From sequence record MN850614.1: a stretch of 64,000 nucleotides of DNA; one strand, given 5' to 3'. This DNA is from Escherichia phage adrianh. The notes beneath the pieces were generated by a model. That model searched no databases and had not been told where the DNA came from. It saw nothing but the letters and a program-made list of their open reading frames with translations. Below are positions 9,041-40,617 of this stretch, piece by piece; the first letter of the stretch is position 1, and each line of letters starts with the position of its first letter. The translations under genes were made by a program, and so were the position numbers.

Positions 9041-9592
9041 TCAAGATAGTTTTGCAAACTCTCCGTGGAGTTTAATAGCAGCTTCACAGTAAGCTTTATG
9101 GGCTTCTTCTGGTGTGTCAAACATACCAAGATGATAGTTTTTACCTTGTAAACGTATCATTGCTCGAAACCTTTTACTTATCTTCTGTACACCTTTTGGC
9201 AACCCAGATGGGGACTCTCTTGACCGATTGCAAGAGTTTTGTGAAGCTGTACAAACCCTTAAATTCAAGTACCTATTGTCCCAACCGTCCCCATTCTTAT
9301 GGTCAACCTGTAAGGTTTTATCAGGTAGATATCCATCCATATACAAGATAACTAAACGATTTGCTTGGTAACCCCTTCCATCAATCAGCAACTGAACTGA
9401 CTTGTGTCCATCAGTATTTGTTCTGTAGTTTCCAGCCCTCTTACCTCCAAATCTAGAGTTAAAGTTTGCATTACCTTCTCTAAACTTCCAAGTAAAGACC
9501 CCTGTTTCGGGGTCGTAGTCCAATAGCCCCTTAAGACGAATTTCTGTAATCATTTCAACACCATCAATGCACTTCCAACCAGCTCTTACCAA
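9041..9592 (-). mobile_element. HNH homing endonuclease gene (183 aa)
   Basis: HNH-type motif (QVDHKNGDGWDNRYLNLRVCTASQN); N-terminal segment YDPETGVFTWK shared with the second HNH ORF at 19132; sits immediately downstream of the polymerase gene. Confidence 0.7.
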
Positions 9593-12293
9593 CCTTACCT
9601 GTGCCAGTTACAAGCGTCTCACTCTTCAAACCTAAATTCTTAGATGCCTGACCATACATCCAGTCAGTTATGGCTTTAACTTCTTGAGTCATACTTTCTG
9701 GGCACTCCCAACTGTTTTCATCGTGGTATGCCAGCAAAAGCCTAGCACCAATTGCTGGTTTTCGTCCATTTAATTTTGTCAACCCTTCTTCACATGCTCT
9801 TCTACAAGCAAGGTTAATTGCCTCGTTCTGAATCTGACTTTCCGAACCCATGAGCAAATAATTCAATAACTTATGTGGAGATTTACACCACAACCAAGCT
9901 CCAGCAACCTTTACAAAACCCCCTTTAGAGATTGCAGCAGTCTTACCAAACACCTCTTCAAGTGCCTTTTTAGTTGCTTTGTAGTCAGCTTCCAAGTCAT
10001 CTAACAGCTTCTTAATTTTAGGCAAACGAATAAAGTAGGTCTGTTTAGTCAGTGCACCTTCCTGAGTAGTTGCAGCTTTAATTGTCTTAGCAAACTTCTC
10101 ATCACCTGCACCGAACAGCAGTGCATAGATACCATTCTTAGCTTTCTTACGACCCTTGCTAATCTCATGGAGAAGGTTCTCATCCTGAGTAGCTCGACAA
10201 GTCAAGATATCCTGCTCATCATTCAAGCTAAAGTAAATACTGTTCAGTGTGTGTGCATCAGTCCCTGAATAGACAACGTAAAGGTCGTTCTCAGAGTCAT
10301 AGCGAAGGTACTTATCAATCTCTGGGTTGAGGTACTCATCAAAGTGTTTGCAGTAATAGCGTCCATCTTCTTGACGAATAAACTCAATCTCTTCTTTACC
10401 TTGCGTTACCGCTTTGGTGAAGTCTTTGTCACCCATAAAGTTACAAAGAAGAACTAGCTGGGCTGAGTTCATGTCTACAGAGACAACGTTAGTACCTTCT
10501 TCACAAATCCACACTGCCCTCATTGGTTCCCCATAGACAGCAGCACCAGACGGTACGTTTACAATACCATACTGTGTCATACGTCCAGTTGAAGTACCAA
10601 ATACCATTGCACCAGCACTAAGGCGACCATCAGGACGAATCTGGTTCAACCAACCTTTTTCATCATCCTTTGAGTTCTCAATAGTTCTGCGTCGGTGCAT
10701 CAAAGTATAGTACTTAGCAATCTTCTGTCCAAGTTCACCTTCAATCGTATCATAAGATGACTCAGTAAGCTTTGGTGAAGTACGGATTAAGCAAGGTTCA
10801 AGCAAATCTGTGTATTTCTTCACAGACCAATTATGCTCAATGTACTGTACACCTTCGTGCTCAACATAGCTCAAACCACACCGCTCAACCATTTCCTGCC
10901 ACTTAGGATGTTTTGTAATCATCTTTTTATTGTCTTTGAAACGACAAACTTTGACAGGGCGACCGTCTGAGTCTTTCTTGTAGTTCCAGTCATCTGGAAT
11001 CCAACCAACTGATTTCAAGTAGTCTTTAACAACTGCTACCTGAGTCATACGAGAAACTTCAAACTCAATTGGTGTATATGGTGCATCAATCAAACCTGTG
11101 TAGCGACTTGACTCAAGTTCAAAGTGGTTAACAACGTGGCTGTTATAGTACTTCACAGTTTTGACTGTTTTTACTGGCTTCCAGTCTTTGCATTTCTTAC
11201 CAATCTTTGCATTCAACTCATTGCAAATTGCACGAGCATCCTTCATTGCTACAAAACCTTCCTTGTACTCTTCACCAGTTACAGAGTTGGTTGGTGTATA
11301 GCAATTCCTTTTTTCAATGTTAAAAATCTTTGTAGTTGGCTTACCAAATGGTTTGATTTCATAAGTCTGCATCTCACCATTACGTACCTGCTGACGGTAC
11401 TTTGTCTTAGGGTACTTGGTAATTCTCTTCAGTCCATCTGCATGACCAAATGTTTCAACATACTCATTCCAAGCCCTTGCAAACTCTTCTCCAGTGACTT
11501 TACCTTTGGTCTTAATAGTTGGAGGAAGATGTGGTTCAACCTCTGAAGCAAGCTCATTAGTCAACTTGTCAAGTTCCTTTACATGGAACTCCATAAGCTC
11601 TTTATCAGCTTTCCAACCATTGATAGCTTGCTGGCTCATCCAGAAAGATGTCTCTTTAGCTCGCATGTAAGTCTCATAAGTGTCTATACCACACTTCTTA
11701 AGCTTGAGATACTCGTTATCAAGTGCCCGTTTAGTTTTGGCATTAATACGGATATCTTCTACAACACGAGTGAAGATTTCTGCATTCCACACACCCCAAT
11801 GTTCAATCTCTGGTTTACGGACACCAACACGAGCACCCCATGCAGCCAAACCATGAGCACCTTTATAACCCTTTGGGGTTGGCCTATCCATCCACTGAAC
11901 ACGAGACTGGATAAGAGAGTCCTGAAAGAAATTACTCCACGGTTTACACTTTGGATTATCAAAGTTCCATAAATCAGGTGCAATGTGATTGAAAACCCAC
12001 CAGTCATAACCGAGACCATTATGGATGCAAAGACGTTTTGCCTTTAACGCAAATTCAACACCTTCACGTAAACCACCTTTGATGTACTTAGTGTACTTGT
12101 GACCGAGGATAGGCTCATCTGTAAAGACCCATACAGGTGGCTCTTCATCGTCAGATTTATAGTCTGCAAAGGCCATTACGTGAACTTTAGTGAACTCAAG
12201 GAGTAAACCATCAGTTTCTGTATCACCAACCAAATGTAAGTTTTTAAAATCTACGTTTTCCATTTTTACTCCCTCTAAAATCATTAACCTCAT
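9564..12293 (-). CDS. DNA polymerase, family A, with 3'-5' exonuclease domain
   Basis: 909 aa; exo motif VGDTETDG; motif A-like SVDMNSAQLVLL; motif B RKKAKNGIYALLFGAG; motif C YHDE; uninterrupted. Confidence 0.85.
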   Translation of the reverse strand: MRLMILEGVKMENVDFKNLHLVGDTETDGLLLEFTKVHVMAFADYKSDDEEPPVWVFTDEPILGHKYTKYIKGGLREGVEFALKAKRLCIHNGLGYDWWVFNHIAPDLWNFDNPKCKPWSNFFQDSLIQSRVQWMDRPTPKGYKGAHGLAAWGARVGVRKPEIEHWGVWNAEIFTRVVEDIRINAKTKRALDNEYLKLKKCGIDTYETYMRAKETSFWMSQQAINGWKADKELMEFHVKELDKLTNELASEVEPHLPPTIKTKGKVTGEEFARAWNEYVETFGHADGLKRITKYPKTKYRQQVRNGEMQTYEIKPFGKPTTKIFNIEKRNCYTPTNSVTGEEYKEGFVAMKDARAICNELNAKIGKKCKDWKPVKTVKTVKYYNSHVVNHFELESSRYTGLIDAPYTPIEFEVSRMTQVAVVKDYLKSVGWIPDDWNYKKDSDGRPVKVCRFKDNKKMITKHPKWQEMVERCGLSYVEHEGVQYIEHNWSVKKYTDLLEPCLIRTSPKLTESSYDTIEGELGQKIAKYYTLMHRRRTIENSKDDEKGWLNQIRPDGRLSAGAMVFGTSTGRMTQYGIVNVPSGAAVYGEPMRAVWICEEGTNVVSVDMNSAQLVLLCNFMGDKDFTKAVTQGKEEIEFIRQEDGRYYCKHFDEYLNPEIDKYLRYDSENDLYVVYSGTDAHTLNSIYFSLNDEQDILTCRATQDENLLHEISKGRKKAKNGIYALLFGAGDEKFAKTIKAATTQEGALTKQTYFIRLPKIKKLLDDLEADYKATKKALEEVFGKTAAISKGGFVKVAGAWLWCKSPHKLLNYLLMGSESQIQNEAINLACRRACEEGLTKLNGRKPAIGARLLLAYHDENSWECPESMTQEVKAITDWMYGQASKNLGLKSETLVTGTGKVGKSWLEVH

Positions 12294-14558: not shown

Positions 14559-14759
14559 ATGAAGATGAGAGTAAAAGACAATTTTAAAGTTATTGACCAC
14601 CGTTTAGTGGAACTCTCATCTCTTTCCAATGAGGTAATGATTGAACGTCTTAAGAGAGTTGAATCACGAAGGAAAGAGATTGCAGATGAAATTCATGAAC
14701 TGGACAAGATTGAAAATGGATTGAAGGCAGAACTACAACGAAGAGGTGCTAATGTCTAA
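14559..14759 (+). CDS. Hypothetical small protein
   Basis: 66 aa ORF. Confidence 0.4.
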   Translation: MKMRVKDNFKVIDHRLVELSSLSNEVMIERLKRVESRRKEIADEIHELDKIENGLKAELQRRGANV

Positions 14760-16737
14760 AGGTCGTAAATTGAAAGAGGCTGGTCAGTTTGTTGGTCATT
14801 GTGCATGTCCACGTTGTGGTTCATCAGATGCTGGTTCAATCTATCATCATGACGATGATTCTTATTCGATGACTTGCTTTAGTTGTAAGAAAGGTTTCCC
14901 AGAGTGGGATTTTGATAAAGGACAAATCGTGAGCACTTATTCTACTGGTTCAGACAATAAAAACCGTACTTTCCGTGGAATGGATTTAGACGATGTAAAA
15001 GAAAACCTAGAAGCAATGGACTTGAAAGACAGGAAGATTCCTGCAAAAGTTCTTGAGCGTTTGGGTATTAAGGTTGACATTGACAGTGATGGTGAAATTG
15101 ACGCACATTTCTACCCAACTTACAAACGTAATGAAGATGGTAAGCTAGAACATGTTGGCTACCGTGTTCGTCACCGTTACCCAGAAGACCATCCAAAAGA
15201 GCACCTACGTGGTAAGCTAAAAGACTTTTCTGGTGGTGTTGGAGACATTAAAGGTGAACTGGCAATGTTTGGTTCATGGATTGCTCCAGAAGGTGGTAAC
15301 CGTCTATTCATCTGGGAAGGTGAGATGGAATGTGCGACAGCAATCTACATGACCTCTTTGGCGATTAAAGATAAGTCTCGTCGTAAGAATTACTGTCACG
15401 TATCTGTCCCATCAGGTGCAAACATTAAGTCTATCAAAGACAACTATCAGTACATCACATCATTTGATGAGATTTACTTGTGCTTTGATAACGATGAAGC
15501 AGGTGCTAAAGCTACCAAAGAGGCTGCTGGCATTCTCCCTATCGAGAAGGTTCGTTTATTCCAGTATCCAGAAGGTGTAAAAGACCTTAACGAATGGTGG
15601 ACAAAGTTCTATAAAGAGAAAGATACAGTTCTGGAAGGATTTAAGCAGCGTATCTACAATGCACCTCGTTACTGTCCTGCTGGTATCAAGAACTTCGCAG
15701 ATGGTTTTGAGGCAATGAAGAATCGTGGTCAGATTCCATTGATTCCTTTCCCAGAATCATTCGGAGATTTGAACAGACTGACTTATGGTGGTTATGGACT
15801 AGGTGAGATTACAACTCTGGCAGCACCATCTTCAGTGGGTAAATCAGCATACACTCGTGAAATGATTTACACAGCTTGGAAAGAAACCGATTACAATATT
15901 GGTGTAATTCCTGTAGAAGATACCTATGAAGAGTTGATGGAGATGCTCTGTGCAATCCACCTGAGCAAGCAGATTTCTGAGATTCCTTATGACGAACGTG
16001 ATTGGGATGAATTGAAGGGAGCGCACGCAGAACTATCTAAAGGTCGTCGTATCCACATCGTAGACCATCAAGGGGCAATTGACCAAGATAACTTACTGGA
16101 GTTTGTTGACTATCTTGTTAATAGCTTAGACTGTAAGATTATTATTCTTGACCCTATTACGTTGGCTCTGTCACGTTCAGATACGGATGAAGAGGAAGTT
16201 TTGTCTGAGCTATTGCGTCGTTGCAAACGCTACCAGTATGCACAATTGAACGTCTGTCACGTTCGTAAGAGTGCAGGTGGTCAGAAGGCTAACTCTGAAG
16301 GTGGGGATATCTCTGAAGAGGATATTAAAGGCTCTGGTGCGTATTTCCAGATTTCTATGAACAACATTCTGTTAATGCGTAACAAGGTTGACCCAGACCC
16401 TGTTAAGAAAAACTTGACAAAAATCAAGCTAACTAAATGTCGTCGTCACGGTAAGTCAACGGGTATTGCTGGTCATACTTGGTACAATCCAGATACAGGA
16501 CGCCTCATCAAAGCATCTGGTTGCGGAGTTGACATTGATGGTGCAGCAGAAAATATTCGCCAACAGTTTGGTATTGGTGAAGCTGAAGACCATTACGATG
16601 ACTCTTTGCCACATTATGAGGATGAAGTGTTTGACCGTGAGACTGGTGAAGTCTATACTGAAGAGCAGCGCCAAAGCTCAACGATTCCACCTGTATTAAG
16701 TGAGGATGCAGATGACTGCCCATTCGAAACTGAGTGA
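14746..16737 (+). CDS. Primase-helicase (zinc finger, TOPRIM, DnaB-like helicase)
   Basis: 663 aa; N-terminal zinc ribbon CPRCGSSDAG ... CFSCKKGF; Walker A GKS in the C-terminal half. Confidence 0.8.
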   Translation: MLMSKGRKLKEAGQFVGHCACPRCGSSDAGSIYHHDDDSYSMTCFSCKKGFPEWDFDKGQIVSTYSTGSDNKNRTFRGMDLDDVKENLEAMDLKDRKIPAKVLERLGIKVDIDSDGEIDAHFYPTYKRNEDGKLEHVGYRVRHRYPEDHPKEHLRGKLKDFSGGVGDIKGELAMFGSWIAPEGGNRLFIWEGEMECATAIYMTSLAIKDKSRRKNYCHVSVPSGANIKSIKDNYQYITSFDEIYLCFDNDEAGAKATKEAAGILPIEKVRLFQYPEGVKDLNEWWTKFYKEKDTVLEGFKQRIYNAPRYCPAGIKNFADGFEAMKNRGQIPLIPFPESFGDLNRLTYGGYGLGEITTLAAPSSVGKSAYTREMIYTAWKETDYNIGVIPVEDTYEELMEMLCAIHLSKQISEIPYDERDWDELKGAHAELSKGRRIHIVDHQGAIDQDNLLEFVDYLVNSLDCKIIILDPITLALSRSDTDEEEVLSELLRRCKRYQYAQLNVCHVRKSAGGQKANSEGGDISEEDIKGSGAYFQISMNNILLMRNKVDPDPVKKNLTKIKLTKCRRHGKSTGIAGHTWYNPDTGRLIKASGCGVDIDGAAENIRQQFGIGEAEDHYDDSLPHYEDEVFDRETGEVYTEEQRQSSTIPPVLSEDADDCPFETE

Positions 16738-17211: not shown

Positions 17212-18069
17212 ATGTCTAAAGTTGTTAAAATGAAAGCTCCGGTAGAGAAGTACAACGGTACTGAACGTCAAACTCTGCGTTACCTGCTGAAAGATGTCTG
17301 GTTTTATTACCTGAACACTTCACCACGTCCGGGAAAAGGTAAGTCTATTGATAAAAAATTCCCAGGAAAAGATTGTAACTACAGCGTATCAATTCTGGCA
17401 GAAGACGGTAACAAGCTCTTTAAAGAGTTTACTAAGTCTAAGAAAAATCCAGAAGGCTGGGATAAAGTTACTACTGAAGCAGTTGACGCAGATGACTTTG
17501 AAGAGAAGTTTGGTTGTAAGCCACCTTTTGAAGCAGACACTTACTACATCTTGAAAGTAAGTCGTGCAGCAGCTTATAAAGATGGTGCTGTATGGACAGC
17601 TAAACAGTCATTCCCTGTAATGCTGATTGAAGAAGTAAATGGTAAGCGTGTAGCTGTTAAGCAGCCGATGAAGAAAATCAAAGCTCAAGCATCTGATAAA
17701 CATGAAGATGACAAGAACTATGATGTAATTCATCCAGATATCGCAGTTGGTAATGGTTCTTTTGGTAGTGTGATTCTTTCTACTCACTTCTACACTTTTG
17801 AGAACAATGTTCTGACAAAACCTATTCAGGAACAGTTTATCATTGATACTCTTGTACCTTACACTGGTGGTAACGGTGCTAATGGTGAACCTGAACTTGA
17901 TGAAGATGAACTGGCTATGCTTGGTCTTGATGGTGTTGAAGATAACGGTGAAATCACTGAAGAAGACGCAACAGACCATAAACCTTCGAATGCTTCTGAT
18001 GATGGTGATGATGAAGATTTGCCAGACCCAGATGACGAAGAAGATGAAGACTTCGATACAGAAGATTAA
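17212..18069 (+). CDS. Putative ssDNA-binding protein with acidic C-terminal tail
   Basis: 285 aa; C-terminus is a long Asp/Glu run ending DEDFDTED, as in phage SSBs; position between helicase and nuclease. Confidence 0.4.
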   Translation: MSKVVKMKAPVEKYNGTERQTLRYLLKDVWFYYLNTSPRPGKGKSIDKKFPGKDCNYSVSILAEDGNKLFKEFTKSKKNPEGWDKVTTEAVDADDFEEKFGCKPPFEADTYYILKVSRAAAYKDGAVWTAKQSFPVMLIEEVNGKRVAVKQPMKKIKAQASDKHEDDKNYDVIHPDIAVGNGSFGSVILSTHFYTFENNVLTKPIQEQFIIDTLVPYTGGNGANGEPELDEDELAMLGLDGVEDNGEITEEDATDHKPSNASDDGDDEDLPDPDDEEDEDFDTED

Positions 18070-30786: not shown

Positions 30787-31057
30787 AGAGAAGTGGGAGA
30801 TTTTACCACTAGTCAGTGAGGGTGGTAATGGCTGTGAAATGTACATGATACGTGGGCATGTTCCAGAACCAATTGCACTTGAGATGGTAAACAATTTTAC
30901 AGATGGCTCTTACAAAGATTTAGGAGAACCAACTGTCAAGCAACAATGGGTTAAACCTGTACCAGACAGCACAGGTAACTGTAGTGTACTTTATCACGTT
31001 GTAGACCCTGCAAAATGCAAATCTGCAATGGCAGTAACAAACGTAACTTTTGATTGA
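30779..31057 (+). CDS. Hypothetical protein
   Basis: Start at ATG 30779 overlapping the upstream stop. Confidence 0.4.
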   Translation: MAKEKWEILPLVSEGGNGCEMYMIRGHVPEPIALEMVNNFTDGSYKDLGEPTVKQQWVKPVPDSTGNCSVLYHVVDPAKCKSAMAVTNVTFD

Positions 31058-31067
31058 GAGAAAAACT

Positions 31068-31949
31068 ATGAAGACATCTATTCGTGTTATAATTCATTCA
31101 CCGACAAAAGGGTCTCATGAAGAAGAGTTTAACATCATCCAGTTCCCTTCTGGTGAGATTGGTGGACACTTTTCACAAGAGCTTGTTGATTTTACTGCTT
31201 ATGCAGCATCATCTATCAACAATGTGATTATGATTGTAAAAGGTTATGATAAGGACACATTGTTTGCTGTGGCACTCGCTAAAGAAGCAATTGATGATTT
31301 AATTCCTCATGATTATGCCTTAAAGACTGTCATCTTTTACTACTTACCAAATGCACGATATGACCGTCACATGTTTAAAGGTGATGCAGCAGCTTTGAAG
31401 GTTTTTGCTAAACAGGTTAATGCAATGGGGTTTGGTGCAGTATGTGCAGTTGACCCTCACAGCTATGTACCAGATAACCTGTTTGACTGCTTCCAAAGTA
31501 TTCCTCAAAATGAAATTGCAGTCCACTATGCAAATGACCCACTGGTTGATTACTTAGTAGCCCCAGATGCAGGTGCTGCTAAGAAGATTGCAGAGACTGC
31601 TAAAGAGGTGGATAAACCATATATCACAATGTCTAAGGTGCGCAACCTTAAAACTGGTGAAATTACTGGTATGCGAATCCTTGATGATGTTGATTTGACC
31701 GATAAAACTGTTATGATTCTCGACGACATCTGTGATGGCGGTCGAACCTTCATAGAAGCAGCTAAACATCTTCGTGAAGCAGGTGCAAAACGTGTGGAAC
31801 TCTATGTAACACATGGTATCTTCTCTAAAGGGGTTGAAAACCTTCTTGACAATGGTATTGACCACATCTACACTACAAACTCTTTAGGGGAAGCTAAAGA
31901 CCGTGGTTTAACACATTATGGTCAAGTTACTGTAGCAAACCTTGATTAA
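31068..31949 (+). CDS. Ribose-phosphate pyrophosphokinase family protein (PRPP-synthetase-like)
   Basis: PRPP-synthetase-like segment MILDDICDGGRTFIEAAKHLREAGAKRVELYVTHGIFS; start placed at ATG 31068 with GAGAGAAAA RBS. Confidence 0.8.
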   Translation: MKTSIRVIIHSPTKGSHEEEFNIIQFPSGEIGGHFSQELVDFTAYAASSINNVIMIVKGYDKDTLFAVALAKEAIDDLIPHDYALKTVIFYYLPNARYDRHMFKGDAAALKVFAKQVNAMGFGAVCAVDPHSYVPDNLFDCFQSIPQNEIAVHYANDPLVDYLVAPDAGAAKKIAETAKEVDKPYITMSKVRNLKTGEITGMRILDDVDLTDKTVMILDDICDGGRTFIEAAKHLREAGAKRVELYVTHGIFSKGVENLLDNGIDHIYTTNSLGEAKDRGLTHYGQVTVANLD

Positions 31950-31957
31950 AACTTTAT

Positions 31958-31981
31958 AGGGGGCTTTCAAGCCCCATTTTG
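31958..31981 (+). terminator. Terminator-like hairpin
   Basis: GGGGC-TTTCAA-GCCCC hairpin followed by ATTTT. Confidence 0.45.
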
Positions 31982-31995
31982 AGAGAGATTAAAAG

Positions 31996-33777
31996 ATGAC
32001 TAAATCACTTTATGCAGTACCAGCAGGTTTAAACGCAGATGCTTACAAATCTGGTCATGTTTACCAGTACCCTAGTGCAACAGATTACTTGATGTTTAAC
32101 CTGACACCACGTAGTGATAAATGGTTTAACAGCCCTTTAGCAATTGATGGTGTAGTGGCTTTTGGTATTCAACGTTTTGTTAAAGATTACTTAATAGACC
32201 ACTGGAACGCCACCTTCTTTGAACGTGACAAAAAAGAAGCAATTGATGAAATCTTAGAAGTCATGAACGGTGTTCTGGGTAAAGATGCTATTGGTCGAGA
32301 ACATTGGGAAGCACTTCACGACTTAGGTTATCTACCAGTTGAAGTATACGCTGTAGAAGAAGGTACAGTTGTCCCTATGCGTGTTCCAATGATTGTATTC
32401 CAGAACACTGTTTCAGGTTTCCATTGGGTAGCGGGATATCTGGAAGATGCTTTCTCTGCTGAGATTTGGAAGGCTTGTACCATTGCAACTATTGCATTGC
32501 ACTACAAACGTATCTGTAAGAAGTGGTCTGACCTTACTTGTGACAACGACTTGCATTTACCTTATCAGTGCCATGACTTTGCTATGCGTGGTATGTCCGG
32601 CTTTACCGATGACGCATTTAACGCTGTAGGTCACTTAACCAGCTTTAAAGGGACTGATAGCTTCCCTGCTGTGTATACAGCTAAACGCATCTATGGGCAG
32701 TCCTATCCAATTTCCGATATTGGTGGTTCTGTACCAGCCACTGAACACTCTGTCATGTGTGCAAACATTGCTTGGGAAGGTGGGAATGAGTTAATTGAAG
32801 AAGAAAGACGCTTTAAAGGTGAGTTACAAACCTTCCGTCGTTTCTTAACAGAAACTTACCCAACTGGTATTGTAAGTATTGTTTCAGACACTTATAATTT
32901 CTGGAGAACTGTATCAGTGATACTCCCAGAACTCCGTAAAGAGATTATGGAACGTGATGGCAAACTGGTAATTCGTCCTGACTCTGGCGACCCTGTACAT
33001 ATTGTCACAGGTTATAAAGCAATCCACTTAGAGTGTGCTAAAAAGGCTTATTACGAACACCTAAGCAAGCTTGAAGCCAGCGACACAATGTTGAATACTG
33101 TTCTGAACATGAAGCTTGAAAACATCAACTACGGCATTGCTGGGTGGCTACTGTCAGAAGGTTACGAAATGGTTGTTGACAGAGAAGACTTTGAAGTTGC
33201 TGATACAGTGATGTTGAAAAATGCTTATATGGTTGGTTCTGCAAACGTTGTAACACGTCCTGTAGCAGAGATTGATGGAGCTATCAAGACACTGTATAAC
33301 ATCTTTGGGGGAACTATCAACTCTAAAGGTTTTAAAGTACTGGATGAGCACATCGGACTTATTTATGGTGACTCTATCACGTTGGAACGTGCAAACGAAA
33401 TCTTGAAGCGTTTGTATGAAATGGGTTTTGCAAGCTCTAACGTAGTGTTTGGTGTAGGCTCTTACACTTACCAGTACATGACTCGTGACACCTTTGCATT
33501 TGCTGTCAAAGCAACTCTTGCAAGCATTGGTGGTAAAGAGATTATGCTTGCAAAAGACCCTAAAACAGATAGTGGTGTTAAGAAATCTGCCTTTGGTGGT
33601 GTAGCACCTATGTGGGATGGTGATAAGCTGAAAGCTGTAGATGGCTATGGATTCCAGAGTTTTGCAGATGTACTTGACCACCAAGCTTGTGCTTTACGTT
33701 TAGTCTTTAGCGACTCTGAGCAGTTCGGTTATACAACTCTTGGAGATATTCGAAATAATATTGACAAGCAGCTTTAA
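31996..33777 (+). CDS. Nicotinamide phosphoribosyltransferase family protein (NAMPT-like)
   Basis: 593 aa; NAMPT-like motifs NADAYKSGHVYQYP, CHDFAMRGMSG, FKGTDS, VSDTYN, IRPDSGDP. Confidence 0.85.
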   Translation: MTKSLYAVPAGLNADAYKSGHVYQYPSATDYLMFNLTPRSDKWFNSPLAIDGVVAFGIQRFVKDYLIDHWNATFFERDKKEAIDEILEVMNGVLGKDAIGREHWEALHDLGYLPVEVYAVEEGTVVPMRVPMIVFQNTVSGFHWVAGYLEDAFSAEIWKACTIATIALHYKRICKKWSDLTCDNDLHLPYQCHDFAMRGMSGFTDDAFNAVGHLTSFKGTDSFPAVYTAKRIYGQSYPISDIGGSVPATEHSVMCANIAWEGGNELIEEERRFKGELQTFRRFLTETYPTGIVSIVSDTYNFWRTVSVILPELRKEIMERDGKLVIRPDSGDPVHIVTGYKAIHLECAKKAYYEHLSKLEASDTMLNTVLNMKLENINYGIAGWLLSEGYEMVVDREDFEVADTVMLKNAYMVGSANVVTRPVAEIDGAIKTLYNIFGGTINSKGFKVLDEHIGLIYGDSITLERANEILKRLYEMGFASSNVVFGVGSYTYQYMTRDTFAFAVKATLASIGGKEIMLAKDPKTDSGVKKSAFGGVAPMWDGDKLKAVDGYGFQSFADVLDHQACALRLVFSDSEQFGYTTLGDIRNNIDKQL

Positions 33778-34175: not shown

Positions 34176-34516
34176 AAATTATGAAAATCAAAGAAATGAA
34201 CATCAATATTGTCTTAGAAGAACGCTGGGAGAACATCAAGAAGCCTGAAAATGGTCATAAGTTCCTCAACAAAATCTTAGTAGCAGCTAAAGAGGAACTG
34301 ACTGGCAAGGTTGCAGCGGCAATCACAATAAAGGTGTGTGTGAAAGGTCTTCCAGACAATCACCAATTTGCACTTGACGAGTTTAAAGAAAGCTTCTACA
34401 ATCCAAACAAACAGATGCTTGAAAGTAACTTTGCAGTATCTACAAGTATCGTCCATGACAGAAGCTTTATCCTTTACAAGAATATGAGAGGTGAGTTATG
34501 CAAGCATATTGGATAG
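34169..34516 (+). CDS. Hypothetical protein
   Basis: 115 aa. Confidence 0.45.
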   Translation: MVKIMKIKEMNINIVLEERWENIKKPENGHKFLNKILVAAKEELTGKVAAAITIKVCVKGLPDNHQFALDEFKESFYNPNKQMLESNFAVSTSIVHDRSFILYKNMRGELCKHIG

Positions 34517-34674
34517 AAATTTTACTGTCACTTGGTAGTGTAGCAGTGTTCGTATACCTTCTTTGCAAGTACTACGCAGAGCACAAAAAATGTGACTTCT
34601 GTAATGGGGAAGGTTATACAAGAGTAGGCTGTTGCCCTATATGTGGTGGTTCTGGTAAAATGTTTAATAAGTAA
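34498..34674 (+). CDS. Small membrane protein with CxxC zinc ribbon (58 aa), not in the ORF track
   Basis: ATG at 34498 with GAGAGGTGAG upstream; hydrophobic N-terminus then CDFCNG ... CPICGG. Confidence 0.4.
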   Translation: MQAYWIEILLSLGSVAVFVYLLCKYYAEHKKCDFCNGEGYTRVGCCPICGGSGKMFNK

Positions 34675-34702
34675 TTTAACAGCAAACTAAGAGGAAAGTA
34701 TT

Positions 34703-37069
34703 ATGCGCATGGTAAATGACCACGCAGAAGTGATTAAGAGTTCAACTTCTTTAGAGACGTCTCAAGCACAGATTACAATGACACCCGAAATGTTCAGCCT
34801 TTTGAGTTCTGGTGTATACACCTTTAAAGAAAGGGCAGTTATTCGTGAACTGTCATGTAACGCAGTAGATGCTCAGAAAGAGGCTGGAAAAGAGAACATT
34901 CCGTTCCATGTGCATTTACCTACTCGTTTTGAGCCTTACTTTGAAGTTCGTGATTTTGGAACTGGATTGACTCATGATAAAGTTATGAGTTTGTATCTAA
35001 ACTACGGGGCTTCTACGAAGAATGACTCTAATGACTACATTGGTGCAATGGGTATCGGCTCAAAATCCCCATTTGCAATTGCTCAGTCATTCACAGTGTC
35101 CAGTTATGTTGATGGTGTTGTTAATAAGTACTCTGTTTATCTTGAGAATGGTATTCCTCAAGTAACTAAGCTGACCACCAACCCAACAAAAGAACCTAAT
35201 GGTTTAGCTGTACGTGTAGCAGTTGCTGACCATCGTATCTCAAAGTTCTTTGAAGAGGCTGGTCACGTATACTCATACTTTGCTGTAAAACCGGAAAGTA
35301 ATATCGAGTATGACGATGTATTGTCAGATATGAACGTCATTGCCCGTGAAGAAGGTGTTTATGATGCCATGATTCATAAGCAAAGCTGGCGTTCTAGTGG
35401 TAACAGGACAGAGTTTAATGTAGTGATGGGTAACATTGCCTACCCTGTTAACATGGAAGCATTACTTGGTGATGATTTCTTCAAAGTCTTGCCAGAATTT
35501 TTCCGTAGGAGCGTAGACCTTGTAAACATCTATATGCCTATTGGTTCAGTTGCTATTGCAGCTTCTCGTGAAGCATTGCAGATGAATGATACAACAAAAA
35601 ATGTTATCATTGAGGCTACTAAAAAGATAACTGAAGCAATTACAAAGGATGTTATCAAGAAAGTTAACAACCAACCTACACTCATGGATGCTGCACAGGC
35701 TTATGCTGAGTTACGTTTGAACTCACGAGAGATGTTTAATGCTGTGTGTCCAAAGCTAGAGTGGGGAGGCATTAAGCTTGATTCTCTGGAAGAAGAATTA
35801 CTAAACATTCGTCGTGGGATTATCTACGCAGAAGACGGCTCAGTCATTTATGAACGTGACGGTAAAGGTAATATCAAGGTTGATAGGAACGGGAACAATA
35901 TCCCTAAAGTGGATTATCTTTATAATCCAGTTGCTTATGTCAAGTTCAACTCTTTAGAGAGTAAGATTCGTGCAACAGCACTTTCCTACACTCAAGAGGC
36001 AAGTATGTTCAATATCTTTGGTGCAATGCGTAAAAGCCAAATTGAACAGTTTTTGTTCGTGATTAATGACCGTCGTAATAAAAATGGCACTGAGAAGACT
36101 GTAGGCCGCAATCAGATTCTGCGTGGTGCATGTCGAGACTACGCTAACGAGTCAAGCCTGTTCCACAGATACAATGGTATTGTGTTTGTATTCTCGACTG
36201 AAAAAGAGTTAGATGATTTAATCAATCTACACAAGCTTGATAAAAGTTTGTTAAAGATTGTGAAGATGTCTGATAAGGAACACCATTATCAGCGTAAAGA
36301 AGCTGTGAGGGGTGTTGTAAAACTCTGGAAAGCTGTTCCATCAGAAACTAAAGCTTCATACACAGAGGTGTCAGAAGACCTAGATACAATTGAAGAACCC
36401 CAGCTTTATATCAAGGCAGTAGGCGACACAGTTGATGGTGAATGTTTTTGCTCATCCCCAGAAGATGTAGCTAAAACAATTGCTAATGTTATAGGAAAAA
36501 CAGTCTATGTTTTCCGAAAAGCAAATTGGAAAAAGATACCAGAAGACTGGATTGAAGTAGATGAGAAGCTATTGAATGACAGCTTAACTGATGTTCACTG
36601 GATTAATCATAACAGGTATATGACACGTATCTATATGAATGGTGTCCTTGACCTTACAAGTAGTTGGATTATTGCCAGAAACTTTACGTTTAATAACAAG
36701 AAGATTTCTCGCGGGTATTGCTATTCACGAGATACAAACAAAACCATCTTCTTAGAAGGTAATGAGAATGCTGTTGAGGCAATGTTTGGTAAGATTCAGT
36801 ATGTGGCTGCACCGTTTGCATACACTTACACTATCAGTGTTCTTCAGGATTTGAAGTCATGCCTTGACAATGATACAAAACTGTACAAAAAGATTAAGAA
36901 AGCGGGTGACCGCATGGTTATCAAACTGACAAACTATCTTTCAAAAAGAAAACAAGAAAACTTCTTGCTTTCTCATTTAGATTGGAATAAAGTGTCACCC
37001 ATCGAAGTGAGTAAGTTCTTAGGTTTTGATGTGAAGTGTGTTCCAGAAGGAACTACAATTTACGATTAA
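34703..37069 (+). CDS. rIIA-like protein (GHKL/HSP90-type ATPase N-terminal domain)
   Basis: 788 aa; ATPase boxes ELSCNAVDA and DFGTGL ... GAMGIGSKS; paired with the following gene. Confidence 0.5.
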   Translation: MRMVNDHAEVIKSSTSLETSQAQITMTPEMFSLLSSGVYTFKERAVIRELSCNAVDAQKEAGKENIPFHVHLPTRFEPYFEVRDFGTGLTHDKVMSLYLNYGASTKNDSNDYIGAMGIGSKSPFAIAQSFTVSSYVDGVVNKYSVYLENGIPQVTKLTTNPTKEPNGLAVRVAVADHRISKFFEEAGHVYSYFAVKPESNIEYDDVLSDMNVIAREEGVYDAMIHKQSWRSSGNRTEFNVVMGNIAYPVNMEALLGDDFFKVLPEFFRRSVDLVNIYMPIGSVAIAASREALQMNDTTKNVIIEATKKITEAITKDVIKKVNNQPTLMDAAQAYAELRLNSREMFNAVCPKLEWGGIKLDSLEEELLNIRRGIIYAEDGSVIYERDGKGNIKVDRNGNNIPKVDYLYNPVAYVKFNSLESKIRATALSYTQEASMFNIFGAMRKSQIEQFLFVINDRRNKNGTEKTVGRNQILRGACRDYANESSLFHRYNGIVFVFSTEKELDDLINLHKLDKSLLKIVKMSDKEHHYQRKEAVRGVVKLWKAVPSETKASYTEVSEDLDTIEEPQLYIKAVGDTVDGECFCSSPEDVAKTIANVIGKTVYVFRKANWKKIPEDWIEVDEKLLNDSLTDVHWINHNRYMTRIYMNGVLDLTSSWIIARNFTFNNKKISRGYCYSRDTNKTIFLEGNENAVEAMFGKIQYVAAPFAYTYTISVLQDLKSCLDNDTKLYKKIKKAGDRMVIKLTNYLSKRKQENFLLSHLDWNKVSPIEVSKFLGFDVKCVPEGTTIYD

Positions 37070-37074
37070 AGTGT

Positions 37075-37104
37075 TTGACAAGGGGCTTCGAAGCCCCTTA
37101 GAAT
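37075..37104 (+). promoter_or_regulatory. Promoter-like element with palindromic spacer
   Basis: TTGACA, spacer formed by palindrome AGGGGCTTCGAAGCCCC, then TAGAAT; could equally be a weak terminator for the upstream gene. Confidence 0.35.
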
Positions 37105-37148
37105 AGCCTTACAAAATGATTTATTAACTAACAAGAGAGAGTAATAAG

Positions 37149-38258
37149 ATGACTACTAAAACTAAAGCACAGATTGACGCAGAAATTTACGAACTGGTTA
37201 AAGAAGGTAAGCTGACTAAAACAGCTATTGCACAGAAGTTCAATACTTCAACCCGTTCAGTTGGTCGTGCTGTAGAGCGTCATGAAGCAACCTTAAAAGG
37301 TAAGAAAAAGGTAGCTTCTAAACCAGCTACGAAGACTTTGAAGCAAGTTGCTAAATCAGTTAAAAAGAAAGCTGACAAACCAGTTGAAAAGGTTGTTAAA
37401 GAGCCTGTACAGAAAGCTCCGGTAAATAAACTGCATGAAGCTATGCAGAATGGCAACCAGATTGAGTACATGATTACTGGCGACTCTGTTATCATGACTT
37501 TCGGTGCAGATTCTGAAATCGTTGAATCTACCCATCCGAACTACAAAGAAATCGTGATGGCTGTTGTATCCGGTGAGTATAAGAAAGCTTTCGAACTGAT
37601 GAACATTCGTAAGTCTATCGAAAACTTCACTCAGGGTGCTATCACCATCAAAGGTGACAAGTTATTCTATGGTGCTGTTGAGATGCGTTCTACTCTGGTT
37701 GACCGTATTCTTCACATGATGAAGACTGGAGATAAGGGTTTTGAACGCCTTGTGATGTTCTTCGAAAAACTGATGGAAAACCCATCTAAAGACTCTGTAG
37801 AACAACTTTGGGGATTCGTATCTCACCTTGATGTTGAAATTGATGAAGAAGGCTACATCATTGGTTGGAAGAAAGTCTCTACTCATGAAGGCAAGCTGGT
37901 TGACTCCCACACCTACAGAGTACCTAATGATTTGGGTAACATTGTAGAAATGCCACGTTGGATGGTTGATAATAACCGTAACGTGACTTGCTCTCAGGGT
38001 CTTCACGTTGGTGCTTGGGATTATGTTCGTTGCTTCTCAGGTGATACAATCCTGAAGGTTCGTGTCCATCCACGAGATGTTGTATCTGTTCCAACTGATT
38101 ACAACGATATGAAGATGCGTTCGTCTCGTTATGAAGTTGCAGCAATCGTTGATAATCAACGTAAAGTGCTGAAAGAATGGGATGGCAAGACTGAAGCTTT
38201 GCATGTCATCGTTGGCACTGCTGGTGAACTAATCTCCCAACGTAAACGTGAAATCTAA
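37149..38258 (+). CDS. rIIB-like protein
   Basis: 369 aa immediately downstream of the rIIA-like gene; assignment by position and size only. Confidence 0.4.
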   Translation: MTTKTKAQIDAEIYELVKEGKLTKTAIAQKFNTSTRSVGRAVERHEATLKGKKKVASKPATKTLKQVAKSVKKKADKPVEKVVKEPVQKAPVNKLHEAMQNGNQIEYMITGDSVIMTFGADSEIVESTHPNYKEIVMAVVSGEYKKAFELMNIRKSIENFTQGAITIKGDKLFYGAVEMRSTLVDRILHMMKTGDKGFERLVMFFEKLMENPSKDSVEQLWGFVSHLDVEIDEEGYIIGWKKVSTHEGKLVDSHTYRVPNDLGNIVEMPRWMVDNNRNVTCSQGLHVGAWDYVRCFSGDTILKVRVHPRDVVSVPTDYNDMKMRSSRYEVAAIVDNQRKVLKEWDGKTEALHVIVGTAGELISQRKREI

Positions 38259-38274
38259 TAAGTAATTTCTTAAA

Positions 38275-38298
38275 AGGCTGCTTCGGCGGCCTTTTTTA
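38275..38298 (+). terminator. Rho-independent terminator
   Basis: GGCTGC-TTCG-GCGGCC hairpin followed by TTTTTT. Confidence 0.65.
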
Positions 38299-38358
38299 TT
38301 TGTATTTTGTGCAGAGTGCTGTATAATTGTTGTCACGATAAACTAAACAGGAGAACCA

Positions 38359-38907
38359 ATGAAGAAATTGATTCTAGGTTTGTGCTTAATGTTTACAGCA
38401 CACTTATCTTATGCAGTTGACTGCCCAGAGCTATCAATTAGCCAAAAAGTAAACATGTTAAAAGCTTACCAGTATGGTGAGAATAACATGGGTAAAGGTT
38501 GGGGTATCACTCTAGCTGCTATAGCCTTACAAGAGTCAGAGTTAGGTCTGAAGGTAGAGAATAAAAAGACACATGATTATGGTATCTTCCAGAATCACTT
38601 GAAGACTGTTGTAAAGCGTAACAAAATCAGTCCTAATGTGGCTAAAAAGAAACTCTTAAAAGACTTTGACTATGCTGCTAAGGAAACTCACAAAGAGCTT
38701 GAGTTTTGGACAAAGGTGCATGGTCAGCCAAAGTCAAAGAAGACTTTACAAAAAGTCTTAGCATCATATAATGCTGGGTATTCGTACAGAATCCCTAAAG
38801 CTAAGAAATATTCTCAAGATGTTTATAACAATATGAAAGTAATTGCTCAATGTGAATTTGCAACAAACATTTCTAAGGTAAACCATGAAAAAATTAAGAA
38901 AGTCTGA
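38359..38907 (+). CDS. Secreted lytic-transglycosylase-like protein
   Basis: 182 aa; signal peptide MKKLILGLCLMFTAHLSYA; LQESELG ... DYGIFQ resembles the SLT catalytic region. Confidence 0.5.
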   Translation: MKKLILGLCLMFTAHLSYAVDCPELSISQKVNMLKAYQYGENNMGKGWGITLAAIALQESELGLKVENKKTHDYGIFQNHLKTVVKRNKISPNVAKKKLLKDFDYAAKETHKELEFWTKVHGQPKSKKTLQKVLASYNAGYSYRIPKAKKYSQDVYNNMKVIAQCEFATNISKVNHEKIKKV

Positions 38908-40106: not shown

Positions 40107-40454
40107 ATGACATTTAAAGAGTTCTGTCAAGCTACTTTCATAATTGTTTTCTTAGTTGGGGCAGGTGTCTGGGGAGGATACTCTTACAGAGACTATCAAG
40201 TTGCTGAAGCTGAGCTAAATAATGAGAAACTAATAAGTGTTGCCAAAGATGCTTATCAGGAAGGTTTAGCCACACTGAGCACCAATTACAAAAATGATTT
40301 GAAAGATGTGCTTGCTAAGAATAAGCATACAAAAGAGGTACTAACGTATGAAAAGACTAAGCCAGAGTTTTATAATGTTTGTGTTACTGATAATTATGTC
40401 AGGGTGTTCAACGAACAAAGTGAGCAGTACATTCAAAAACTCCCAAGTAAGTGA
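40107..40454 (+). CDS. i-spanin-like protein (N-terminal TM, coiled coil)
   Basis: 115 aa; single N-terminal hydrophobic helix then charged helical region. Confidence 0.4.
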   Translation: MTFKEFCQATFIIVFLVGAGVWGGYSYRDYQVAEAELNNEKLISVAKDAYQEGLATLSTNYKNDLKDVLAKNKHTKEVLTYEKTKPEFYNVCVTDNYVRVFNEQSEQYIQKLPSK

Positions 40455-40617
40455 GAGTGATAAGTACACTCAAGAAGAATCACGGTATATCATCAAAGGC
40501 AACACAGGTAGTGATGTAGCAGCAGCACTTGAGTTCTACCGTGACGGATTTTACCAGTGTACAATCAAAGCTAATAACCTTATTGACATGATTTTATTAG
40601 GGAATAAGCAGCAATGA
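40348..40617 (+). CDS. o-spanin-like lipoprotein overlapping the upstream gene in another frame
   Basis: 89 aa; signal peptide with lipobox-like IMSGC; starts inside the 3' part of the previous ORF, as in Rz/Rz1 pairs. Confidence 0.4.
   Translation: MKRLSQSFIMFVLLIIMSGCSTNKVSSTFKNSQVSESDKYTQEESRYIIKGNTGSDVAAALEFYRDGFYQCTIKANNLIDMILLGNKQQ

Follow-up and report, generated by a model that had tools for sequence, protein, structure and literature searches.

The rIIA and rIIB proteins of phage T4 act as a counter-defence to the RexAB system of phage lambda, and how rII works at the molecular level has been an open question for approximately 70 years. Here we examined the rIIA-rIIB gene pair of Escherichia phage adrianh (sequence record MN850614.1) within a stretch of 64,000 nucleotides (nt), hereafter called the window, which is a Felixounavirus genome; these are Felix O1-like myoviruses infecting E. 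coli and Salmonella. The pair and its anti-exclusion role are already known and have been documented in near-identical phages. Closest is Bas63 (Escherichia phage JohannRWettstein), a member of the same genus whose bas63_0084 and bas63_0085 products are 98% and 88% identical to rIIA and rIIB of the window, respectively. Window rIIB also matches the rIIB of vB_EcoM_Alf5 at 100% identity and that of Felix O1 at 96%. The gene order nicotinamide phosphoribosyltransferase (NAMPT), small open reading frames (ORFs), rIIA, rIIB, an SLT-like gene, and PNK is shared with all three phages, relative to which the window pair shows allelic differences only, mostly in the rIIB linker, at amino acids (aa) 241 to 270, and in the C-terminal tail. 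The Alf5 announcement (PMC5477317) calls the RIIA/RIIB genes "a characteristic feature of Felixo1virus phages." In the GenBank record of Felix O1, ORF1 is rIIA and ORF4 is rIIB, and the pair has carried these names in the genus since that genome. Nucleotide identity of the rII region to approximately 200 Felixounavirus genomes from E. coli, Salmonella, and Shigella sources ranges from 94 to 98%. In SUSP1 (Ounavirinae, Mooglevirus/Suspvirus), a phage of the same subfamily with conserved synteny, rIIB is 84.9% and rIIA 62.9% identical to the window proteins, and over the C-terminal half of rIIA identity drops to 52%.

We read the locus as the rIIA-rIIB counter-defence operon of Felixounavirus (probability approximately 0.9). 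The two proteins would jointly keep abortive-infection systems of the host or its prophages from destroying the infected cell ahead of progeny production, by a mechanism that we infer below, and would be dispensable on hosts lacking such systems. Both ORFs lie exactly where a preliminary description of this sequence had placed an rIIA/rIIB-like pair, on the same strand, with rIIA upstream and a gap of 79 nt between them:

34703..37069, plus strand: rIIA gene, 788 aa (phrog_612; BLASTP match to T4; 98% identical to Bas63)
37149..38258, plus strand: rIIB gene, 369 aa (phrog_609; BLASTP match to T4; 100% identical to Alf5)

Profile searches for the rIIA and rIIB families, run against PHROGs, were positive for both proteins. 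rIIA matched phrog_612 ("RIIA," E = 1e-188) over residues 1 to 770 and profile positions 1 to 716 of 725, and rIIB matched phrog_609 ("RIIB," E = 3e-88). The T4 proteins, taken from NC_000866, landed in the same two PHROGs (T4 rIIA to phrog_612, E = 9e-250). By BLASTP, rIIA was 32% identical to T4 rIIA over aa 24 to 317 (E = 8e-37), with no alignment of its C-terminal half, and rIIB was 35% identical to T4 rIIB over its full length (331 columns, E = 5e-61). These matches confirm the identity first proposed for the pair. The likeness to T4 extends to gene order, orientation, the GHKL motifs, an SREAL loop in rIIA, and the helix-turn-helix (HTH) and core of rIIB. The window differs from T4 in its genome backbone and replication genes and in the lysine-rich linker of its rIIB, since T4 rIIB has no basic tract.

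Other searches were less informative. No significant match to either protein was found in a Pfam-A scan (HATPase_c reached only 13 bits), and single-sequence PDB searches with rIIA and rIIB found no relatives. The Pfam copy used held no rIIA or rIIB model, PF26926 being met only as a precomputed label, so a check against Pfam alone would wrongly have looked negative; the PHROG matches and the direct comparison with T4 decide the question. The absence of a significant Pfam match could be taken to mean that the rIIA label is an annotation artefact and that this GHKL protein belongs to another family, such as a topoisomerase subunit, MutL/MORC, or a histidine kinase. We assign this a negligible probability. 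It is ruled out by the full-length match to the PHROG that holds T4 rIIA together with the T4 BLASTP alignment, and a profile search of PDB sequences with rIIA returned no MutL, GyrB/topoisomerase, MORC, or histidine kinase at E <= 10.

The function of the pair has been probed genetically in several relatives. In Bas63, deleting either g84 or g85 cuts plating 10^4- to 10^5-fold on QatABCD cells, and complementation largely restores it (PhageMaP, bioRxiv 10.1101/2024.10.10.617714). Knockdown of rIIA or rIIB in T4, MM02, EdH4, SUSP1, and N4 is harmless without RexAB and lowers plating with lambda RexAB (CRISPRi-ART, PMC11879866), and HIDEN-SEQ reproduced the T4 rII result. The suggestion that the pair is an accessory anti-exclusion module thus holds in orthologues, through the Bas63 deletions on QatABCD hosts and the SUSP1 knockdown with RexAB. 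The PhageMaP study words the relation of Bas63 g84/g85 to T4 RIIA/B as "high sequence homology (>80%)," which conflicts with the 32% (N-terminal 300 aa of rIIA) and 35% (rIIB) that we measured for the near-identical window proteins. rIIA and rIIB appear to act as a unit, because they are co-essential in Bas63, co-occur almost perfectly, and are fused in phage RB43. T6 RIIB alone triggers a Lysobacter gasdermin/CARD defence (10.1101/2023.05.28.542683); other defences may use rIIB as an infection signal in this way because it is so conserved.

The product name "RIIA/RIIB lysis inhibitor" in PHROG and GenBank would instead make the pair a lysis-timing (lysis inhibition) module that acts with adjacent lysis genes, and candidates for such genes lie just downstream of rIIB, beyond a hairpin:

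38272..38301, plus strand: strong terminator-like hairpin with T-run, of intrinsic type, directly 3′ of the rIIB stop codon
38359-38907, plus strand: SLT-like gene, 182 aa, with a signal-peptide-like N terminus and a weak SLT lytic-transglycosylase match; the first gene after the rII terminator
approximately 40107-40617: i- and o-spanin genes, further downstream of the SLT-like gene

We consider a lysis-timing role improbable. The strong terminator-like hairpin stands between rIIB and these genes, and neither knockdown of rII in the five phages nor its deletion in Bas63 had an effect unless a defence system was present. In T4, whether rII mutants lyse rapidly is set by the host and the prophages it carries, and lysis inhibition proper requires rI, rIII, and the holin.

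To describe rIIA within the counter-defence operon, we refer to two features:

34757..35287, plus strand: GHKL (Bergerat-fold) ATPase domain of rIIA, approximately aa 19 to 195, assigned from invariant motifs and Hsp90-type matches
35561..35581, plus strand: motif AASREALQ of rIIA (aa 287 to 293; SRExLQ loop, aa 288 to 293), with R289 and E290 invariant

The GHKL ATPase boxes ascribed to the protein in the preliminary description are present, and they are invariant in 71 homologues (N box, E49/N53/D56; G1 box, D84/G86/G88; G2 box, G114/G117/G119) and align with those of T4 rIIA. The C-terminal half (aa ~331 to 788) is variable between lineages. An AlphaFold2 model built from the 71 homologues had a mean predicted local distance difference test (pLDDT) score of 87.6. 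When this model was compared with the PDB by Foldseek, the top 50 matches were all of the Hsp90 family (TRAP1, HtpG, Hsc82, and GRP94; E ~ 1e-15). In the profile search of PDB sequences, Hsp90-family proteins filled 27 of 29 rows (TRAP1, E = 2e-5; HtpG, E = 6e-3), and hhalign paired rIIA residues 30 to 176 with residues 16 to 182 of E. coli HtpG (probability 95%, E = 2.5e-8). The top NCBIfam match was "HSP90 family protein" (NF010683, E = 2.8e-11), followed by an Hsp90-like sacsin domain; the score of 42.6 bits did not pass the family cut-off of 455.

Four independent routes lead to Hsp90 in this way, and two local signatures point in the same direction. The rIIA consensus LYsnKirAviRELscNAvDa parallels the Hsp90 signature helix, and AASREALQ is in register with NVSREILQ of HtpG (R336) and APSREALS of T4 rIIA. 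In Hsp90 this loop holds the middle-domain catalytic arginine, R336 in HtpG and R380 in yeast Hsp82. The Hsp90 chaperones (HtpG, TRAP1, and Hsp82) share with rIIA a GHKL N-domain and the signature helix, and possibly the SRExLQ-like loop; unlike them, rIIA pairs with a dedicated partner, rIIB, in counter-defence. No sign of an Hsp90 C-terminal dimerisation domain was found in rIIA, nor was any Hsp90 sequence match past the N-domain. We conclude from these comparisons that rIIA is Hsp90-like, specifically rather than as a generic GHKL protein, and not an Hsp90 family member, because its score falls below the cut-off and nothing matches past the N-domain. The same specific likeness applies to T4 rIIA. 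In the searchable literature, we found no report linking rIIA to Hsp90, Hsp90-like proteins, or HtpG and, from 2024 onward, no paper on the structure or mechanism of rII; the Hsp90-type signature with its SRExLQ loop seems to be unreported as far as the literature search reached.

The partner protein, rIIB, was divided into four segments from its AlphaFold2 model (pLDDT 86.6), all encoded on the plus strand:

aa 6-49: three-helix HTH (helices 6-19, 24-30, and 35-49; pLDDT ~95)
aa ~51-93 (37299-37427): disordered lysine-rich linker, with 14 K+R in 43 residues, a net charge of +11, and an isoelectric point of 10.4
aa 94-224: alpha/beta middle domain
aa 237-366: beta-rich C-terminal domain

The HTH resembled the DNA-binding domains of DeoR, KorA, RcsB, and DosR (Foldseek, probability 0.9 to 0.99) and gave a weak Pfam HTH match. 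This segment of approximately 45 residues was the only part of rIIB matched in the PDB by Foldseek, the middle and C-terminal domains having no solved neighbour there, and a search of the viral structure library BFVD matched other rIIB proteins only. Among homologues, F204, G235, K241, C281, G284, H286, and P308 are invariant; homologues carry the PF26926 label, and some carry recognised HTH Pfam domains. In RB43, a natural rIIA-rIIB fusion is encoded as a single coding sequence of 1,049 aa (L040, AY967407 1-3150). This fusion accounts for the length of phrog_609 "RIIB" (1,055 positions) and for its being matched by the rIIA N terminus as well.

Based on these features, we propose that rIIA would be an ATP-driven, Hsp90-like GHKL clamp, in which the catalytic Glu, Mg-binding Asn, adenine-binding Asp, glycine boxes, and Arg of the SRExLQ loop are all invariant. 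As its partner, rIIB would anchor the complex to DNA or the anionic inner membrane through the N-terminal HTH and basic disordered linker, and the conserved rIIB-specific core may be the part that touches the defence system or whatever triggers it. Remodelling or sequestration fuelled by ATP could then prevent sensors such as RexA or QatA from firing, or could block effectors. T4 rII proteins have been described as membrane associated, and a peripheral attachment, such as one made by the basic linker of rIIB, could be compatible with the lack of a transmembrane helix.

Several points weigh against this account. The phenotype data come from orthologues rather than from phage adrianh itself. RexAB and QatABCD are very unlike, yet one rII pair counters both. 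No transmembrane helix was predicted in either protein (maximum KD19 hydropathy, 1.29 for rIIA and 0.78 for rIIB). The Foldseek alignments of rIIA to Hsp90 proteins cover 580 to 750 columns at low TM-scores (0.3 to 0.49), as would be expected if the domain orientations differ. hhalign stops at residue 176 and is significant for the N-domain only, and a Smith-Waterman comparison over the SRE region reached only z ~ 4, with one shuffle scoring higher. For ATP hydrolysis, dimerisation, and rIIA-rIIB binding, we found no demonstration in any member of the family.

A related possibility is that the module acts on DNA and not on the membrane, with rIIB as an HTH transcription factor or DNA binder and rIIA as a GHKL clamp on DNA. 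The clamp would either regulate phage transcription or hide replication or recombination intermediates from the abortive-infection sensors that they set off. The resemblance of the rIIB HTH to bona fide DNA-binding domains, the recognised HTH domains of some homologues, the histone-tail-like character of the lysine-rich, strongly positive linker, and the lack of predicted transmembrane helices in both proteins would fit such a role, and Iyer et al. (2021) class rIIB as a specific transcription factor (PMC7824862). The GHKL domain of rIIA is nearest to the Hsp90 chaperones, however, and not to the DNA-handling MutL, GyrB, or MORC branches, the T4 literature has membrane association, and a basic linker could equally bind anionic lipids. 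We regard action on DNA as rather unlikely, and it is a variant of the proposed mechanism rather than a strict alternative.

Extending the counter-defence model, we tentatively suggest, with low confidence, that rIIA across the whole family, including T4, may be a diverged Hsp90-type ATPase composed of an N-domain and a middle-like segment with the catalytic-arginine SRExLQ loop. Paired with HTH-bearing rIIB, it would act as a chaperone-like clamp driven by ATP, neutralising several unrelated abortive-infection systems (RexAB and QatABCD) through remodelling or sequestration of their sensors, triggers, or effectors. It would then be no passive "membrane integrity protector"; a 58-aa mini-protein encoded upstream could be a lineage-specific co-factor. 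For the family as a whole, the Hsp90-type signature and its invariant arginine loop, taken with the HTH and basic linker found in rIIB, would give the ATP-driven remodelling model concrete handles. This is a modest lead on an old question, and the locus itself adds very little that is new.

To determine how broadly the pair is distributed, we surveyed 50,697 phage records by tblastn. rIIA was detected in 2,925 records and rIIB in 2,907, with both together in approximately 2,900 and nearly identical host-genus distributions. These records span T4-like, rV5-like, ViI-like, and jumbo phages, N4-like podoviruses, and phages of Streptomyces, Rhizobium, Caulobacter, and Vibrio. The presence of the pair in many non-T4 lineages indicates that it is not bound to T4-type replication. 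Synteny was examined in 33 related loci, comprising 30 from IMG/VR and those of garuso, Bas63, and Felix O1. As far as the fetched DNA extends, the order NAMPT, orf115, orf58, rIIA, rIIB, SLT-like gene, and PNK is kept, including in Mooglevirus-type genomes and one more distant relative, and rIIA precedes rIIB in every related locus whose fetched DNA includes rIIA. The rII genes have a GC content of 0.39 to 0.41, a third-codon-position GC content (GC3) of 0.36 to 0.37, and codon usage close to that of the polymerase, primase-helicase, and ribonucleotide reductase genes; no sign of recent transfer was seen in any of these three measures.

These results bear on the mosaic ancestry that the preliminary description had put forward, taken here as a recent horizontal gain of the pair from a T4-type phage. 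rII was first defined in T4, and the replication module of the window is unlike that of T4; the family-A polymerase and the primase-helicase fusion named in the preliminary description were both found:

9564-12293, minus strand: family-A DNA polymerase (PolA)
14746-16737, plus strand: Toprim+DnaB primase-helicase fusion
17212-18069, plus strand: acidic-tail protein, 285 aa, with the very acidic C-terminal tail ...DDEEDEDFDTED (also written PDPDDEEDEDFDTED), matched by phrog_3877 only

An "acidic-tail SSB" had been listed with them. The acidic-tail protein is presumably the one meant, but no library recognised it as a single-stranded DNA-binding protein (SSB); phrog_3877 is a family of unknown function, and the protein matches no NCBIfam model. 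A recent gain from a T4-type phage is highly improbable and is effectively refuted: identity to T4 is only 32 to 35%, base composition and codon usage are native, gene order is fixed even in other Ounavirinae genera, many lineages with other replication styles carry rII, and the pair is characteristic of the genus. The pair is a long-standing resident of the Felixounavirus lineage and not a recent graft, the low identity to T4 being one reason to consider it old.

Variation within the genus was assessed by codon comparison of 19 Felixounavirus alleles. The ratio of nonsynonymous to synonymous codon differences was 0.20 for rIIA and 0.35 for rIIB. The rIIA GHKL domain (aa 1 to 150) and rIIB residues 151 to 240 and 271 to 330 were essentially invariant, and rIIB changes were concentrated in the linker (aa 61 to 90) and at aa 241 to 270. 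The linker was the sole segment in which nonsynonymous exceeded synonymous differences within the genus, and in a distant relative (L035, 4989-6350) an insertion of approximately 85 residues takes its place. This pattern suggests that constraint on a disordered tether has been relaxed; it is not a clear sign of positive selection or of an arms race. Within the genus rIIB varies more than rIIA; between genera rIIB is the better conserved of the two.

Transcription and translation signals of the locus were as follows:

34689..34695, plus strand: rIIA Shine-Dalgarno sequence AAGAGGA, 7 nt 5′ of the rIIA ATG, read from the sequence
37075..37104, plus strand: promoter-like element TTGACA-N18-TAGAAT in the rIIA-rIIB spacer, with 11 of 12 consensus matches (consensus match only)
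37082-37097, plus strand: perfect GC hairpin, the 16-nt palindrome GGGGCTTCGAAGCCCC, nested between the -35-like TTGACA and the -10-like TAGAAT

The rIIB start codon is preceded by a good ribosome-binding site, AGAGAG. We read rIIA-rIIB as a single transcription unit closed by its own terminator-like hairpin. The spacer hairpin could attenuate transcription, be a site of processing, or act as a regulated promoter, internal to the unit, that serves rIIB.

The genes immediately upstream of the unit were as follows:

31050-33777, plus strand: ribose-phosphate pyrophosphokinase and NAMPT (NAD salvage), immediately upstream of the rII unit
34498..34674, plus strand: small ORF, 58 aa, with a transmembrane helix and zinc-finger-like motifs (phrog_3931, E = 8e-33)

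In Bas63, g79 and g80 counter Sir2-HerA (PhageMaP, bioRxiv 10.1101/2024.10.10.617714), and Bas63 g80 is the NAMPT found upstream of the rII unit in the window. Because g79 and g80 have this activity and the rII pair adjoins them, the region from ~31 to 38.3 kb appears to be a small anti-defence gene cluster, joining the rII pair to the phosphoribosyl pyrophosphate (PRPP)-synthetase and NAMPT NAD-salvage genes, which would have practical relevance for biocontrol phages.

The 58-aa ORF ends 28 nt upstream of rIIA, with which it is possibly cotranscribed. It has a predicted N-terminal transmembrane helix (KD19 hydropathy, 2.11) and two CxxCxGxG motifs of the DnaJ zinc-finger type (CDFCNGEG and CPICGGSG), and it gave a weak DnaJ match (NCBIfam, E = 0.005). 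The ORF corresponds to bas63_0083, a "putative membrane protein," and its family, phrog_3931, is one of unknown function; phage garuso leaves it unannotated. Its position is conserved in those Felixounavirus and Mooglevirus-like loci for which the fetched DNA extends far enough, and its four cysteines are kept in SUSP1. As a universal rII partner it was rejected, since the distant locus L035 lacks it. T4 rIIA.1 has no cysteines and, on inspection only, no obvious similarity to the ORF. A DnaJ-like neighbour beside an Hsp90-like rIIA is suggestive of a shared chaperone theme, and the ORF is at most a candidate member of the rII module. On the far side of the unit, the product of 38359-38907 is named "putative lysin" in garuso, and an old Felix O1 record likens it to the 20.7-kDa protein of the T4 "vs-regB intergenic region."

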